24,422 nucleotides of DNA, taken from positions 1-24,422 of the forward strand of contig CAZPQW010000037.1 in assembly GCA_964588985.1 (NCBI GenBank), read 5' to 3'. Of this stretch, positions 2,420 through 6,278 are shown piece after piece. Every line of letters begins with the position of its first letter. The first letter of the stretch is position 1. A model generated the notes under the pieces. That model did not search any database. It was not told the DNA's origin and saw nothing but the letters and a program-made list of their open reading frames with translations. Position numbers and translations under genes: made by a program. Source of the DNA: an uncultured Solirubrobacteraceae bacterium. GTDB taxonomy: Bacteria > Actinomycetota > Thermoleophilia > Solirubrobacterales > Solirubrobacteraceae.

Positions 2420-2492
2420 ACCGCCCACGAAACCGCACACGCTCCTGTGTAATCCCAGCGCCAGAGCCAAACCCCACCATTCGCCCCGATGA
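2420..2492 (+). repeat. att-like repeat copy 1 (arm motifs + core TCGCCCCGA at 2481-2489)
   Basis: ccgcccacgaaaccgcacacgc...cccagcgccagagccaa.ccccaccattcgccccga is nearly identical to 6206-6278; tcgccccgatga is shared with 4322-4333. Confidence 0.85.
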
Positions 2493-2597
2493 ATCGTCTC
2501 CTCCCTTAAAGGGTTGTTTTAGAGGTCCTGCGGTACAGCTTGATTTAGTCGGCTGCCGGCGAGCCGTAGCGCTTGCATGCGGCGTTCTCGATCCGCT

Positions 2598-3887
2598 CTA
2601 AGCGGCTTTGCGGCTCAGTTGTGTTTGGGCGAGGTTCGCCGGGGTGGATTTCGATGAGACGAGGCGGAGCTGTTGCCTAGGTGCGCGAGGTGTTTGCGTT
2701 CCTGGGTGGTGTTCGTTGAACTCCTGTCCTCGGTCGGCGCATCGTTGGCGCTGTTCGAGCGCTGCTTCGGCGAGTTGCTCTCGCCAGATAACGATACTTA
2801 GGACATCGACTGAGCGGTCAGGAACTTGTTCGCCGAGGGAGACGGTGCGTCCTCCGTCGTCGTTTGCGAGAACGCCCGGAGCGTCGAGTGAGAGCATCCC
2901 ATCTTGCTCGATGGGCCGGGATCGGTAGATCTGTTTTACGCGCGTGTCGAAGCCAGCGGCAAACCAGCCGGTGAAGTTGCCGCCTGGCCAGGTTTCGATC
3001 GACTGGATCAGCTCTAGGTTTGCCTCGGCGCGCGCCTCGTCGCGATCGAGATATGCGAAGTATGGCTTCGAGATGAGCTTCGCGATGTAGGGTTGCATGT
3101 GCGTCACGAGCCGCTCGCAACAACGTGGGCAGCCACATCCCGCGAATGCGTTTGCGCGGGCACCGAAGATGCGGGGCGGTGCCGTTACCTGGCATCTCGC
3201 TGTCCGGCGGTCTGATCGTCTGCGGTGTTGAGCGGCGAAATCTGCGACGACGCGTTGGGCGTTTCCGTCCGCCAGGATGAGTCGTCGCATCGCTCGGGCT
3301 TGGGTGCAGTCAATACCGAACGTTGAGGCGGCGTCCATGTCGGTGTAGATCGTGAGCAGCGGTGCGGGCAAGAGCGCAAATCCGGTGTCCAGCGTCACGA
3401 TCGCCTCGGCGCCGGTAGCTACGGCACTCGCCGCATGGATTGCGTCGTAGGAGGCGAGTCCATAGCTGGTCATGAGGCTCCTTGCGCTGCTCGTGGTGTC
3501 GCCGAGGGGCACGGGGACGTGGTCGATCGACAAGAGCAACGTCTCATAGCGGGAGATGGTGTCGTTCAACAGACGCGCGGCACGTGGGCGGGCGCGTCCG
3601 TCGGTTCGGTGTTGTCGCCAGCGGCTCCCCCAGCGTTCCTTGAGCGCGATCGCGAATACTGCCTCGGCCAGCTCGACCGGGAGCAGGTCGCTGGTCGTGA
3701 TCGAGACGCCGCTCTCGTCGATCCGGTGCAGGAGGGCGCGACATACTGCGTGGAGGGGCTGTGTGGCTATCAGCGCCTCGACTACGAAGCTAGTGTCGAG
3801 CGCTATCGGATCTGGCAGAAGAAGCTCCGGCTCCTCGATAGCGAAGACGCCGCGCGTAGCGGGCCGGCGTCCGCCTGTAGAGGCCAT
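2598..3887 (-). CDS. PIN-domain (VapC-like) toxin fused in frame to a sigma-70 region 2/3-like domain
   Basis: aa ~26-183: IALDTSFVV...E...SYDAIHAASA...IVTLDTGF (PIN acidic residues); C-terminal half: LDRDEARAEANLELIQSIETW..GNFTGWF and MLSLDAP resemble sigma regions 2 and 3.2. Confidence 0.72.
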   Translation of the reverse strand: MASTGGRRPATRGVFAIEEPELLLPDPIALDTSFVVEALIATQPLHAVCRALLHRIDESGVSITTSDLLPVELAEAVFAIALKERWGSRWRQHRTDGRARPRAARLLNDTISRYETLLLSIDHVPVPLGDTTSSARSLMTSYGLASYDAIHAASAVATGAEAIVTLDTGFALLPAPLLTIYTDMDAASTFGIDCTQARAMRRLILADGNAQRVVADFAAQHRRRSDRRTARCQVTAPPRIFGARANAFAGCGCPRCCERLVTHMQPYIAKLISKPYFAYLDRDEARAEANLELIQSIETWPGGNFTGWFAAGFDTRVKQIYRSRPIEQDGMLSLDAPGVLANDDGGRTVSLGEQVPDRSVDVLSIVIWREQLAEAALEQRQRCADRGQEFNEHHPGTQTPRAPRQQLRLVSSKSTPANLAQTQLSRKAA

Positions 3888-3891
3888 GACC

Positions 3892-4068
3892 CTACCGACG
3901 GCCGTACATGTCGGGCGTGACGCGAACCTTGACCCGGAGTCCCTCCGTGGCGCGCTTCAGGGCTGCGCGTTTTTCCTCGGGAGTTTTGGCTGCCGCAGGG
4001 CGCTTCAGCTCAGCTAGCCGCTCGGGGCTGAGGCGCTCTGGGGTCCCATTGGTTTGCGTTGTTGCCAC
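3892..4068 (-). CDS. Putative antitoxin of the PIN toxin (leaderless GTG start; ATG 4077 is an alternative)
   Basis: Small basic ORF ending 4 bp before the PIN start; TATCAT (4081-4076) lies 7 nt before GTG 4068. Confidence 0.6.
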   Translation of the reverse strand: MATTQTNGTPERLSPERLAELKRPAAAKTPEEKRAALKRATEGLRVKVRVTPDMYGRR

Positions 4069-4264
4069 GGATCTCATGATATCGACCCTAAATCGTGCCA
4101 GCGTGCGCGGACATCTTGTATCTCGATCCGTAGACATCGACGGCCTGTCCGGCCCTCATCGCTCGTGCTGCGTGTTTGCCGATTTGTTTTCGTAGACATG
4201 CGTCTGGTACGGCATATGCGAGGTCTCGGCGAGGGCGAAACCTGGCATGGGCGCGATATGCAGG

Positions 4265-4333
4265 ACCGCAATCAGACCGCAGAATGCCCAAAAGCCGCAT
4301 TGCGAAGTGAACCTGAACCGATCGCCCCGATGA
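4265..4333 (+). repeat. att-like repeat copy 2 (diverged arm; core TCGCCCCGA at 4322-4330)
   Basis: ACCGCA at 4265 and 4276, then tcgccccgatga identical to 2481-2492. Confidence 0.6.
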
Positions 4334-4633
4334 GAAGCTGGTTGGAATCAGGGAAGCGCTGGGGACTCCCTAGCTTCGGGATTTGGCTGTGAGGCGCGGA
4401 TTCAGAGCCATTGGCGCCGATTGTGCAGGGCGGGCTGGAATGGTGGCGCGGAAGTCGACCGCACACGGGCGCGCTCTGTGGCCGCTCAGCGCGATCTCCG
4501 GAGACCCCTGGCTTGATCCAACTCGTACGAGGTCTCCGACGCCCGTCGTCACAGCGTTGCCACGATGCGCTTGAGCACTTGTATCGTGGCGTAGACCGCT
4601 GAGCGCTGTCGCGGCAGCACGTCCAACCACGGC

Positions 4634-5267
4634 GCCACCAAGTGAGGAGAACGCATGGGAGATCATCGCGTGCGCTCGTGATCTCTCCGGACCATCCTTC
4701 GCGGCATGGCTACACGTCGCCGCGTTCACGGGCCTGCGGCCGGGTGAGCTGGATGCGCTGCGGTGGTAGCGGATCGACTTCGCCCGCGGCCGGATCATCG
4801 TCGCGGAGCAGTTCAATGCGGCGCCGCGAAAGTTCGACACCCCGAAGAACCGCCAGCGCCGCGAGGCGCCGCTGACTGCACATGCCCGCTCTGCGCTTGA
4901 GGGGTTGGCGCGGGAGAGCGACTTCTGTTTCGTTTCGCTGCGTGGGGATCATTGGACGCCAAGCTCGCGGGCGTATCACTGGAAGGCCGTACGCGCCGCT
5001 TCCGGCTGGAAGGGGAGCCTGTATCTCGCCACTCGCCACTTCGCTGGCTGGTACATGGTCAATGTCCTTGCGATGCCCTCTGAGGACGTAGCGATCGCGC
5101 TCGGGCACCAGGACGGCGGGAACCTCGTGCGCCGCCTCTACGGGCACCGCGACAGGAACCTGGCACTCGACCGGATCGTCGGCGCGTACGCAACGCAGGC
5201 CGGAGAGAACCGTCTCAAGCAGCGCTCATCATCTCCGGCCCCGTCTCAGCAGCAGAGCCTCTTCTAA
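4634..5267 (+). pseudogene. 5'-truncated, nonsense-mutated second copy of the tyrosine integrase
   Basis: Colinear with 790-1423 at a constant offset of 3844, roughly 90% identical by eye up to 5191; GAG>TAG stop at 4767-4769; N-terminal ~160 codons missing. Confidence 0.92.
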
Positions 5268-5306
5268 GGACTATTTATGTCAGACACAAGTGATAGGGTG
5301 TCGAGT

Positions 5307-5591
5307 ATGGGTGTGCGGTTTGCGCGCTCCGCAACCAAGCACCGCGTCTCGAAGGAGAGGATCCGTCATGTCATCGCCCACTGTGGGCTGTCGTTCGAGG
5401 AGCCCGCGCCCACACGCGACGTGGAAGTCTTGGATCGGCGGCTCGTCTGCTTGGGCGACGATGCGGCTGGCCGTGCGTTGGAGGTCATCGCCGTCGAAGG
5501 TCCAGGCGGTGAGCTGATCGTGATCCACGCGATGGCGCTACGCGACAAGTACAAGGCCCAGTACGAGGAGGCCAAGAAATGGCGACTCTGA
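5307..5591 (+). CDS. Putative type II toxin, BrnT/RelE-like ribonuclease (actinobacterial SAxKH...VIHAM family)
   Basis: RSATKH..., LGDDAAGRALEVI, LIVIHAMALRDKY; overlaps a downstream RHH gene; TAGGGT (5294-5299) lies 7 nt before ATG 5307. Confidence 0.75.
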   Translation: MGVRFARSATKHRVSKERIRHVIAHCGLSFEEPAPTRDVEVLDRRLVCLGDDAAGRALEVIAVEGPGGELIVIHAMALRDKYKAQYEEAKKWRL

Positions 5592-5863
5592 GAACCCGCA
5601 GCGGTACCAAGCTGACCAAGAAGGCCGTCGATGCCCTCGCGGCAGAGGCCGAGCGCGGCTACGACCTCACCAAAGCCAAGCGCGTACGCATGGGCAGACC
5701 CTCACTGGGTGACGCAGGCACCTCCCCTCGGGTGCAGGTCCGGGTCGATGCCGACCTCGCCGAAGCGCTCCAGACCGTTGCTCAGAAGGAGCAGCGCTCG
5801 GTCAGCGAGATCGCCCGCACAGCCCTTCGCGAATACCTCGAGCGCGCCGCTCGGGCAGCATAA
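5579..5863 (+). CDS. Ribbon-helix-helix (CopG-like) antitoxin
   Basis: AEAERGYD...GRPSLG followed by VQVRVDADLAEAL...SVSEIARTALREYL; overlaps the toxin 3' end. Confidence 0.82.
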   Translation: MATLRTRSGTKLTKKAVDALAAEAERGYDLTKAKRVRMGRPSLGDAGTSPRVQVRVDADLAEALQTVAQKEQRSVSEIARTALREYLERAARAA

Positions 5864-5875
5864 GGAGATCGAGCA

Positions 5876-6058
5876 ATGACGAAGAAGATCATCACGACAG
5901 CTGGGGGAGACGAACTCTCCGAGGCGGACATCGAGGCGCTGGCCGACGAGGCCGAGCGCGGCTATGACCTCACAAAGGCCACGCGAGTTACGGTCAACAG
6001 GCCTCCGCTGAAGGCCGCAGCCGAGGCGCTCAGGCCTCGCCTCGTCGAGGACGTTTAA
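5876..6058 (+). CDS. Truncated antitoxin paralog (N-terminal segment only, no RHH)
   Basis: AAGGAG RBS at 5862-5867; EALADEAERGYDLTKATRV..NRPPL matches DALAAEAERGYDLTKAKRV..GRPSL of the preceding gene. Confidence 0.65.
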   Translation: MTKKIITTAGGDELSEADIEALADEAERGYDLTKATRVTVNRPPLKAAAEALRPRLVEDV

Positions 6059-6115
6059 CGACGAAGCCCCAGGGGGGATCACCGCCGAAGCGTGAGAGCC
6101 TAACCTGGGGCATAC
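6055..6115 (-). ncRNA. Candidate small structured RNA (or bidirectional terminator)
   Basis: Minus strand reads GCCCCAGG...UCACGC(UUCG)GCGGUGA...CCUGGGGC UUCGUCGUU; -10-like TACACT at 6128-6123. Confidence 0.45.
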
Positions 6116-6205
6116 AAGAGCAAGTGTAGGCGTGGATCGAAAGTTCCAAGCAGCACCCCGCTTTACGAAGGCCGTCATAGTCAGCGAGCGCGAAGCAGCG
6201 CCGCT

Positions 6206-6278
6206 CCGCCCACGAAACCGCACACGCCTCGCGCAACCCCAGCGCCAGAGCCAGAGCCAACCCCACCATTCGCCCCGA
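6206..6278 (+). repeat. att-like repeat copy 3 (core TCGCCCCGA at 6270-6278); probable right end of the array
   Basis: Near-identical to 2421-2489, with an extra CCAGAG unit. Confidence 0.85.

Follow-up and report, generated by a model that had tools for sequence, protein, structure and literature searches.

A probable stack of small tRNA-Pro-directed integrative units in an uncultured Solirubrobacteraceae bacterium

The left part of a contig from an uncultured Solirubrobacteraceae bacterium (assembly GCA_964588985.1, contig CAZPQW010000037.1) raises the question of how three direct copies of one 9-bp sequence came to separate an integrase gene, toxin–antitoxin (TA) genes and the remnant of a second integrase gene, and by which kind of recombination system this arrangement was built. 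The stretch analyzed, referred to below as the window, is 24,422 bases long and constitutes the complete contig C37 of a genome of 48 contigs (G000). An initial annotation of this DNA had proposed that repeated integration at the 3' end of one tRNA-Pro gene produced an integron-like array of units of about 2 kb, which the single intact integrase could mobilize in trans. We conclude that the locus very probably consists of three small integrative units (E1, E2, and E3) stacked head to tail, formed by repeated site-specific integration at a tRNA-Pro 3' end and followed by decay. The argument proceeds from the sites and their conservation, from the identification of their core as tRNA-Pro sequence, and from the units being found independently in related genomes.

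In the mechanism that we propose, each unit would possess a lambda-type attachment site with a core of 8–9 bp identical to the tRNA's final bases (CGCCCCGA, usually with a T behind it), a right arm with two directly repeated arm-type sites ~45–50 bp ahead of the core and, in the type designated A, a left arm with three arm-type sites ~125–175 bp behind the core. Integration would leave the tRNA intact on the left and a copy of the tRNA end on the right of each unit, and an order of integration events may be inferred from the resulting arrangement. E2 and E3 would be passengers that carry TA genes and resemble cis-mobilizable elements (CIMEs), and the E1 integrase could excise E1 alone or together with its neighbors by way of the outer cores.

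Attachment sites and their tRNA-Pro origin

The 9-mer TCGCCCCGA is present in three copies, all on the + strand, at 2481–2489 (core 1, the right end of E1), 4322–4330 (core 2), and 6270–6278 (core 3, the right end of the array as recognized), with no fourth copy in the 24,422 bases; the positions and direct orientation given by the initial annotation were thus verified. The 9-mer alone is not compelling, as at least three copies were reached in 6 of 100 dinucleotide-preserving shuffles of the window and the 3.41-Mb genome holds 89 copies on both strands, which corresponds to an expectation of ~0.64 per window. Because it is weak evidence by itself, the array reading rests on context, namely the arms, the tRNA-Pro genes, and the relatives. 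Ahead of every core stands the pair of motifs that had been described (2421/2432, 4265/4276, and 6206/6217), 11 nucleotides (nt) apart, the second motif preceding the core by 46–53 nt as claimed. The arm reported to be shared by sites 1 and 3 was also recovered (2421–2489 versus 6206–6278; 85% identity over 74 aligned columns), including an identical 22-mer, CCGCCCACGAAACCGCACACGC, and sites 1 and 2 do have TCGCCCCGATGA in common (direct-repeat family D11).

The arms fall into two types, A and B, which have GACCGCA in common. The 16 aligned type-A right arms give the consensus CCGCnCACGAAACCGCnCACG and, beyond a spacer that varies, GCCA..C..CACCA ahead of the core, and each contains two CCGCnCACG sites; the sites are kept and the spacers vary. 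In the alignment of 12 type-A left arms, a conserved stretch of 70 nt comes first and three CCGCnCACG sites lie beyond it, at about +125 to +175; here too the sites are kept and the spacers vary. Two arm sites on one side and three on the other, all in direct orientation, make up the layout known from lambda-type attachment sites. In the window, the right (P) arm of E1 at 2419–2480 (+ strand; arm-type sites at 2421–2442, delimited from the 16-arm alignment) and that of E3 at 6206–6269 (+; arm sites at 6206–6227) are of type A, and the genome has no other right arms of that type. The right (P) arm of E2 at 4177–4321 (+) is of type B, with paired GACCGCA at 4265 and 4276; it is 76% identical over 107 columns (blastn; Smith–Waterman) to the arm that ends a unit behind tRNA-Pro(TGG) on contig C2, and further type-B arms were found on contig C10 and in the related genomes G081, G061, G076, and G094. 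The left (P') arm of E3 at 4331–4470 (+) is of type A and retains one of its three arm-type sites (4458–4467).

Counted over the 3.41 Mb, as the initial annotation had suggested, the paired type-A motif occurs four times (twice on C37, once each on C29 and C10), always at or beside such sites. The paired type-B motif occurs seven times, three of them 56–57 nt before a C(G/T)CCCCGA core and two more just behind such a core on C10. We infer that the E1 integrase binds CCGCnCACG through its N-terminal domain, the beginning of which (LPSGRWRAQV...) is conserved among the full-length copies in our alignment.

The identity of the core follows from the tRNA-Pro genes of the same genome, of which there are three (CGG on C29, TGG on C2, and GGG on C10), none of them on the window contig; ARAGORN and Rfam found nothing on the window. 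The 3' ends of tRNA-Pro(CGG) and tRNA-Pro(TGG) read GCGCCCCGA-T and that of tRNA-Pro(GGG) reads TCTCCCCGA-T, so that the proposed derivation of the core from a tRNA-Pro 3' end is borne out both by these genes and by the anchored elements of relatives. An encoded CCA, which had been allowed for, is not a feature of these genes, which end in GCGCCCCGA or TCTCCCCGA without it.

All three tRNA-Pro genes have units of the same kind behind them. On C2, a 0.69-kb unit with a Phd/YefM antitoxin gene follows tRNA-Pro(TGG) and terminates in a type-B arm and CGCCCCGAT. On C10, cores lie at 20548 (tRNA-Pro(GGG) itself), 24130, 30355, and 33671; the three distal cores, of the CTCCCCGA kind without exception, are each preceded by an arm, and behind the first two stand left arms that contain further sites. 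The three C10 units, which are without an integrase, encode reverse transcriptase, AbiJ-NTD, pentapeptide-repeat, Mrr, and AbiEii proteins. The region C10:20483–33680 (locus L080) behind tRNA-Pro(GGG) is thus a second, longer stack. On C29, the first 64 nt behind tRNA-Pro(CGG) match window positions 4331–4394 at 92% identity, and three arm-type sites come next.

The same attachment sites recur throughout the genus. Orthologues of the E1 integrase (65–80% identity) were present in 4 of the 30 relatives first searched, its DNA was found in many of 100 genus genomes sampled, and 81 of the 100 match some part of 2400–6400. An integrase element starts right behind tRNA-Pro(GGG) in G005, G008, and G095 and right behind tRNA-Pro(TGG) in G057; it lies within a stack behind tRNA-Pro(CGG) in G076, ~20 kb behind tRNA-Pro(TGG) in G014, and behind a 3' fragment of tRNA-Pro(GGG) in G017. 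All of these close on the right with a type-A arm and the tRNA end repeated. Whether the core has G or T as its third base accords with the anchoring tRNA in nine of nine anchored arrays, counting those on C2 and C10, with G014 and G017 as the weaker cases. In seven of nine relatives' loci read base by base, arm-bearing cores in direct orientation number two or three; G111 and G002 have arm-only relics, in which the left arm passes into a degenerate tRNA end.

That the segments vary independently among relatives, an expectation of the initial annotation, was also found, each of the E1, E2, and E3 types recurring in other contexts. The clearest instance is a 1,951-bp unit of the E3 kind that stands alone directly behind tRNA-Pro(TGG) in G057 and has the order of E3 (left arm, integrase gene cut at its 5' end, TA pair, partial duplicate, right arm, core); its modules are 80–89% identical to those of E3, and its deletion end points differ from those in the window. 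The E3-type left arm is likewise found behind tRNA-Pro genes in G057, G095, G111, G005, and G008. We had considered the sequence after core 2 as the native chromosomal flank of tRNA-Pro(CGG), a candidate ruled out by its other tRNA contexts: it stands behind tRNA-Pro(GGG) in G005, G008, and G095 and behind tRNA-Pro(TGG) in G057, and in this genome two of the three tRNA-Pro genes lack it.

A comparison with empty sites was sought upstream of the DUF1800 gene (8301–9950), the first gene conserved at this place in relatives. No tRNA gene lay within the 13–15 kb fetched at eight relatives' loci, where homology begins only at about 8474–8631 and the neighboring genes fall on many different contigs. 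The matches to CGCCCCGA upstream of the relatives' DUF1800 genes are within coding DNA and have no arms, and synteny at this locus was set aside as too poor to use.

Composition of the units and the left end of the contig

E1 comprises an excisionase-like gene, an intact integrase gene, and one cargo gene, all on the + strand. A leader at 37–130 (ACATGGCCGTTTT ... CACGGTCATTA), which matches the DNA upstream of the excisionase-like gene (xis) in G034, G080, and G044, probably works as the promoter of xis and the integrase gene (int). The helix-turn-helix (HTH) gene at 131–305 (open reading frame (ORF) 45–305, conserved from 131) overlaps the start of int and is 76–82% identical at the nucleotide level to the gene upstream of int in G034, G080, G044, and G075; all of its model matches, to TIGR01764 (E 2.6e-4), phrog_66, and HTH_17, are below the cut-offs. 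The tyrosine integrase (302–1423, 373 aa; PF00589; phrog_1, E 1.2e-31 over residues 6–357) is full length with respect to its orthologues, and the alignment shows its catalytic positions (R, K, R-H, H, and Y) and the motifs LRPGE, TPKN, TRHF, LGH, and LYGH to be conserved; no NCBIfam family was matched at E 0.01. The cargo is a DUF3800 protein (1559–2401; PF12686, 22.4 bits against a cut-off of 21) that has no PADLOC or PHROGs match. Elsewhere, integrases of the E1 type are accompanied by other cargo, including RCC1, CHAT, DUF6932, HTH, Replic_Relax, and TA genes, and in G080 ~85 bp without a cargo gene separate int from the right arm; the left end of the G080 unit was not found. Apart from an insertion sequence (IS) upstream of its promoter, E1 looks competent.

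E2 (2490–4330) and E3 (4331–6278) are 1,841 and 1,948 bp long, and for both the initial annotation had the lengths right, as it did the gene calls in the array (integrase, DUF3800, PIN, and ribbon-helix-helix (RHH)). E2, which lies between cores 1 and 2 and has no integrase, is CIME-like. Its genes are on the − strand: the first 183 codons of a PIN-domain toxin gene (3339–3887; PF01850), which are fused in frame to a 246-codon extension from a separate module (2598–3338), and upstream of the PIN gene an 81-aa putative antitoxin (3892–4137), so called from its position and its co-conservation in the module 3339–4176. Neither the extension nor the putative antitoxin has a family match. The truncation is evident from the 196-aa PIN protein of G081, to which identity is 94% over 183 residues and then stops, and from matches in eight genomes that begin exactly at 3339. 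G081 and G094 have the PIN module (3339–4331) at 90–92% identity; in both genomes the core marks its exact end, and the DNA beyond differs. Window positions 2824–3338 are 90% identical to G094:C146:136–650, which lies 1.7 kb from the PIN module; since G094 thus holds both halves of E2 separated by 1.7 kb more, the cut PIN gene reflects an internal deletion. Core-bounded homologues of E2 were found at G061 9745–11344, a 1.6-kb unit between two cores, and at G081 7495–10716, and Pfam found no integrase among their ORFs.

E3 is composed of the left arm, a dead integrase copy, a TA pair, the right arm, and core 3, with all genes on the + strand. The integrase copy (4620–5267) is dead, as had been noted: it retains residues 159–373 only and has one in-frame TAG (4767–4769, from a tblastn-type match), and it is 92% identical in nucleotides to window 790–1360. 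It is followed by a 104-aa putative toxin (5277–5591), for which the leads are weak and BrnT-like (phrog_36779 'toxin', E 0.0016; an Atlas feature match to a cluster in which 25% of the members have PF04365) and which has no Pfam match; this gene is kept beside int in the genus. A CopG-type RHH antitoxin gene (5579–5863; PF01402, E 1.8e-8) and a partial duplicate of its N-terminus (5876–6058; repeat D4, 5616–5685 versus 5919–5988, 77%) complete the cargo. PADLOC gave no match for the DUF3800, PIN, or TA genes.

To the right of core 3 lie a SoFic-type Fic defence gene (6382–7467; PADLOC E 1.2e-42) and, between it and the DUF1800 gene, a gene for an uncharacterized 200-aa protein (7597–8199). 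There is no further arm-bearing core from 6279 to 9000, and since none bounds these two genes, they may be an older island remnant.

At its other end the window begins inside an IS110-family IS of ~1.33 kb, whose terminal bases would be positions 1–36. In this assembly, which has overlaps of 55 nt, the first bases of the window are common to three contig ends (C37 left, C27 left, C46 right) and another sequence is common to five (C29 right, C28 left, C16, C20, C22 right). A metagenome contig (loci L085 and L086) that contains C46 at 100% identity identifies the two shared sequences as the two ends of one element of ~1.33 kb (L086:2002–3336), which encodes a 362-aa DEDD/IS110 transposase (PF01548, PF02371). 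The IS is known solely from its ends and this metagenome contig: relatives' IS110 transposases, used as tblastn queries, retrieved no copy from the binned genome. An exact-pattern scan of genome_contigs for the first bases of the window gave 0 matches. Relatives without the IS align upstream of xis from about window base 36, which puts the probable boundary of the IS near that base, ~95 bp upstream of xis, with E1 continuing beyond it.

The IS110-family element is also present at two similar sequences elsewhere (C27 and C46), and because the flanks beyond the IS are ~94% alike, sequence-specific targeting by the IS is suggested. Copies just upstream of xis–int are likewise seen in G008, G014, and G076. 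In the metagenome contig, C46, which encodes a TrwC-type relaxase with AAA_30 and an excisionase-like ORF, lies between two inverted IS110-family copies, an arrangement like that of a composite transposon.

Because the contig begins inside this IS, a tRNA-Pro gene directly to the left of the window can only be deduced, the window itself holding the distal repeats alone. The best candidate for the anchor, somewhat more likely than not, is tRNA-Pro(CGG) on C29, separated from the window by the IS. The C10 array is excluded as the anchor, the window cores being of the CGCCCCGA kind, and the C2 array is closed by a chromosomal flank. On C29, for its part, an orphan left arm of type A comes immediately after tRNA-Pro(CGG), the genome's sole type-A right arms being those of E1 and E3; the contig ends in the IS 4.9 kb later, and its tail shows short collinear same-strand matches to the DNA ahead of xis in G044 and G075. 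In G076, a NIF3 gene and then tRNA-Pro(CGG), as on C29, stand ahead of a stack of type-B and type-A units. Target-site similarity did not decide which of the five IS-bearing contig ends pairs with the left end of the window. The DNA downstream of tRNA-Pro(CGG) in G111 was tried as a link between C29 and C37 and rejected as too mosaic, its short pieces mapping to C27, C1, C37 (17067–17582, 80%), C4, and C2.

Two further features are recorded here. At C29:33254–33355 (locus L081), a 45-nt 3' half of the C1 tRNA-Met, spanning the anticodon loop to the acceptor end and the sole such fragment in the genome, stands directly after the three arm-type sites behind tRNA-Pro(CGG); it looks like the arm and core of a related element aimed at another tRNA. 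A conserved hairpin of ~65 nt (AAAAGTGCCCCGGCGC ... GCCCGGGGCGTGGCA), with a ribosome-binding site and ATG behind it, precedes the gene ahead of xis in G044, G005, G080, and G075, and recurs in G000 at C29:37199–37260, C28:989–1057, C2:192223, and on C38 and C3; it may be a leader or a small-RNA element.

Alternative explanations and present mobility

Several observations weigh against a stack built by site-specific integration at tRNA-Pro. The window contig contains neither a tRNA nor a left attachment site of E1, and the link to C29 is made by elimination, shared IS ends, and short collinear matches, with four other contig ends possible. The PIN gene of E2 is cut at 3339, from which it follows that E2 was rearranged by a process that is not site-specific; the left end of E2 has no recognizable arm-type sites, and its right arm is of type B, for which no cognate integrase was seen in the type-B units inspected. 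In E3, the integrase is dead and two of the three left-arm sites are lost. Much of the integrase system is fossil, as is seen from the relatives' integrase copies that were aligned (n = 12), 5 of which are full length, 1 has a replaced N-terminus (G095), and 6 are truncated or broken. Finally, nothing here shows recombination of the array at the present day.

A rival reading is that the stack was built as described and has since become ordinary fixed chromosome in which no site recombines any more, a possibility to which we give appreciable weight while holding it to be somewhat less probable than its opposite. The decay speaks for it, with the dead integrase and eroded left arm of E3, the cut PIN gene, and the IS upstream of xis, as do the assembled data. 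Of the 24 public runs that hold the region, all as assembled contigs, four were compared (X3, X8, X9, and X12); unitigs of run X3 span 1282–4751, with cores 1 and 2, and 5126–8300, with core 3, without alternative joints, and in the four runs there are no joints between cores and no extension to the left of base 26. No excision or circle junction was seen in these contigs either; since assembled contigs drop rare variants and so cannot reveal rare excision, they leave the question of excision undecided. Run X8 has no cover over 1386–2770 and 5264–5540, which proves nothing, and one of its records joins 5109 back to 3026 through 13 foreign letters at a depth of 4, which may represent another strain or an assembly chimera. 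Against a wholly fossil array, the integrase and the excisionase-like gene of E1 are intact, the right arm of E1 fits the consensus, and close units (84–94% DNA identity) are found in other species and other contexts, which points to fairly recent movement of the family.

The origin of the stack might instead be sought in a local segmental duplication of int and arm that produced E1 and E3, the middle 9-mer being incidental. The 92% DNA identity of the two integrase copies and the 85% identity of the two right arms are what such a duplication would give, but E3 owns a left arm (4331–4470) that is also seen behind tRNA-Pro genes elsewhere, both flanks of the middle core have homologues beside tRNA-Pro on C2 and C29, and the solitary unit of the E3 kind behind tRNA-Pro(TGG) in G057 contradicts it, so that we consider this explanation most improbable. 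Little more probable, though still very unlikely in our estimation, is an integron-like platform, in which a resident integrase at a fixed site would capture, stack, and reshuffle integrase-free cassettes of ~2 kb in trans. It would account for the frequency of core-bounded, integrase-free units in the genome and the genus, for cargo that is mostly of TA or defence type, and for the arm type A common to E1 and E3. The integrase, however, lies inside one of the stacked units and not at a fixed site beside the tRNA, and its match to phage-type integrases extends along the entire protein, with no NCBIfam family at E 0.01; like those of a lambda-type attP, the sites combine a core, here from the tRNA end, with arm sites in direct repeat; the integrase-free units resemble decay products, with truncations at several break points and the relics in G111 and G002; and the type-B units inspected have no identified integrase. 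The term "integron-like" in the initial annotation is therefore not upheld, the enzyme being a lambda-type tyrosine integrase with an excisionase-like partner and the sites not being of the attC type.

A stack of integrative units that arose at tRNA-Pro and then decayed thus accounts best for the locus, and what remains to be weighed is how far its units may still move. E2 and E3 have no functional integration or transfer genes and have cores at both ends. Mobilization of E3 in trans by the E1 integrase is plausible, given the shared arm type A and despite the lost sites, and that of E2, with its type-B right arm and no left arm sites, is doubtful. A broader and, in our view, unlikely proposition is that, across this genus of soil-dwelling Solirubrobacterales, the three tRNA-Pro genes are shared landing pads at which one family of arm-binding integrases stacks, excises, and exchanges units singly in trans. 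The units concerned, 0.7–6 kb long, integrase-free, and carrying TA and defence genes, would then form a tRNA-anchored functional counterpart of the integron, in which the arm types A and B and an 8-bp core co-varying with the acceptor stem travel with the cassette.

Relation to known systems

Integrons resemble the locus in being arrays of short, recombinase-free units bounded by recombination sites, which in chromosomal arrays often carry TA or defence genes. In contrast to integrons, the locus has no IntI-type integrase beside an attI site and no attC-type imperfect inverted repeats (an attC model was not run), and its units have their own promoters, several genes, and tRNA-derived sites with directly repeated arms. 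The process, site-specific tandem accretion with decay to CIME-like units, is of a known kind and is not that of an integron.

Nearer counterparts are the integrative and conjugative elements (ICEs), integrative and mobilizable elements (IMEs), and CIMEs of streptococci, of the ICESt1 type. The account of Guedon et al. (2017, PMC5704250) describes, as here, elements that integrate site-specifically into a gene's 3' end, decay to CIMEs that keep attL and attR and lose the integration genes, and entry of a next element into an att site, after which the resulting tandem may move together. Measured against those elements, the units of the window are without conjugation or mobilization genes and much smaller (1.8–2 kb), the target is a tRNA-Pro gene in an actinobacterium, and cis-mobilization is a candidate property. 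Tandem islands downstream of one small-RNA gene are likewise described by McMurdie et al. (2011, PMC3146451) for ssrA in Dehalococcoides, where they are bounded by a short direct repeat of the 3' end with extra conserved adjacent bases and where some islands without an integration module are proposed to be cis-mobilizable. The recombinase described there is a CcrB-type serine recombinase, with a transfer-messenger RNA (tmRNA) gene as the target and a repeat of 20 bp, whereas in the present genome a tyrosine integrase, arm-type sites, a core of 8–9 bp, and three tRNA-Pro genes are involved.

The tycheposon islands of Prochlorococcus, as portrayed by Hackl et al. (bioRxiv 10.1101/2020.12.28.424599), are also tyrosine-recombinase elements at tRNA genes, in which newcomers push older elements inward and broken integrases and partial tRNAs remain; they are distinguished by replication modules, large metabolic cargo, and longer flanking partial tRNAs, and no replication module was seen in the units of the window. 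A further counterpart is seen in the integrative and conjugative elements of actinomycetes (AICEs), such as pSAM2, which according to te Poele et al. (2008, PMC2440964) combine an actinobacterial tyrosine integrase and excisionase with integration at tRNA 3' ends; the target of the pSAM2 system is a Pro-tRNA gene, and a tandem pair of AICEs at one tRNA-Arg has a 44-bp att site between its members. AICEs possess modules for replication and for FtsK-like transfer, and their identity segments measure tens of bp, whereas neither a replication nor an FtsK-like module was found among the ORFs of window 1–8300 or in the C29 tail, and the core of the window units is 8–9 bp.

Set beside these systems, the locus is particular in its very small units, in a core of 8–9 bp co-varying with the acceptor stem, and in the occupation of all three tRNA-Pro genes. 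The locus provides an example of TA and defence genes accumulating behind tRNA genes in little-studied soil actinobacteria, and it yields an attachment-site grammar, in which an 8–9 bp core matching the acceptor end is combined with two sites in the right arm and three in the left. As this grammar marks the arrays behind each of the three tRNA-Pro genes and recurs in many of the genus's species, it could serve to delimit islands in genomes that are mostly uncultured. The view of how such islands form is unchanged by it, and the stack takes its place among the tandem accretions already described for streptococcal elements, Dehalococcoides islands, tycheposons, and AICEs.

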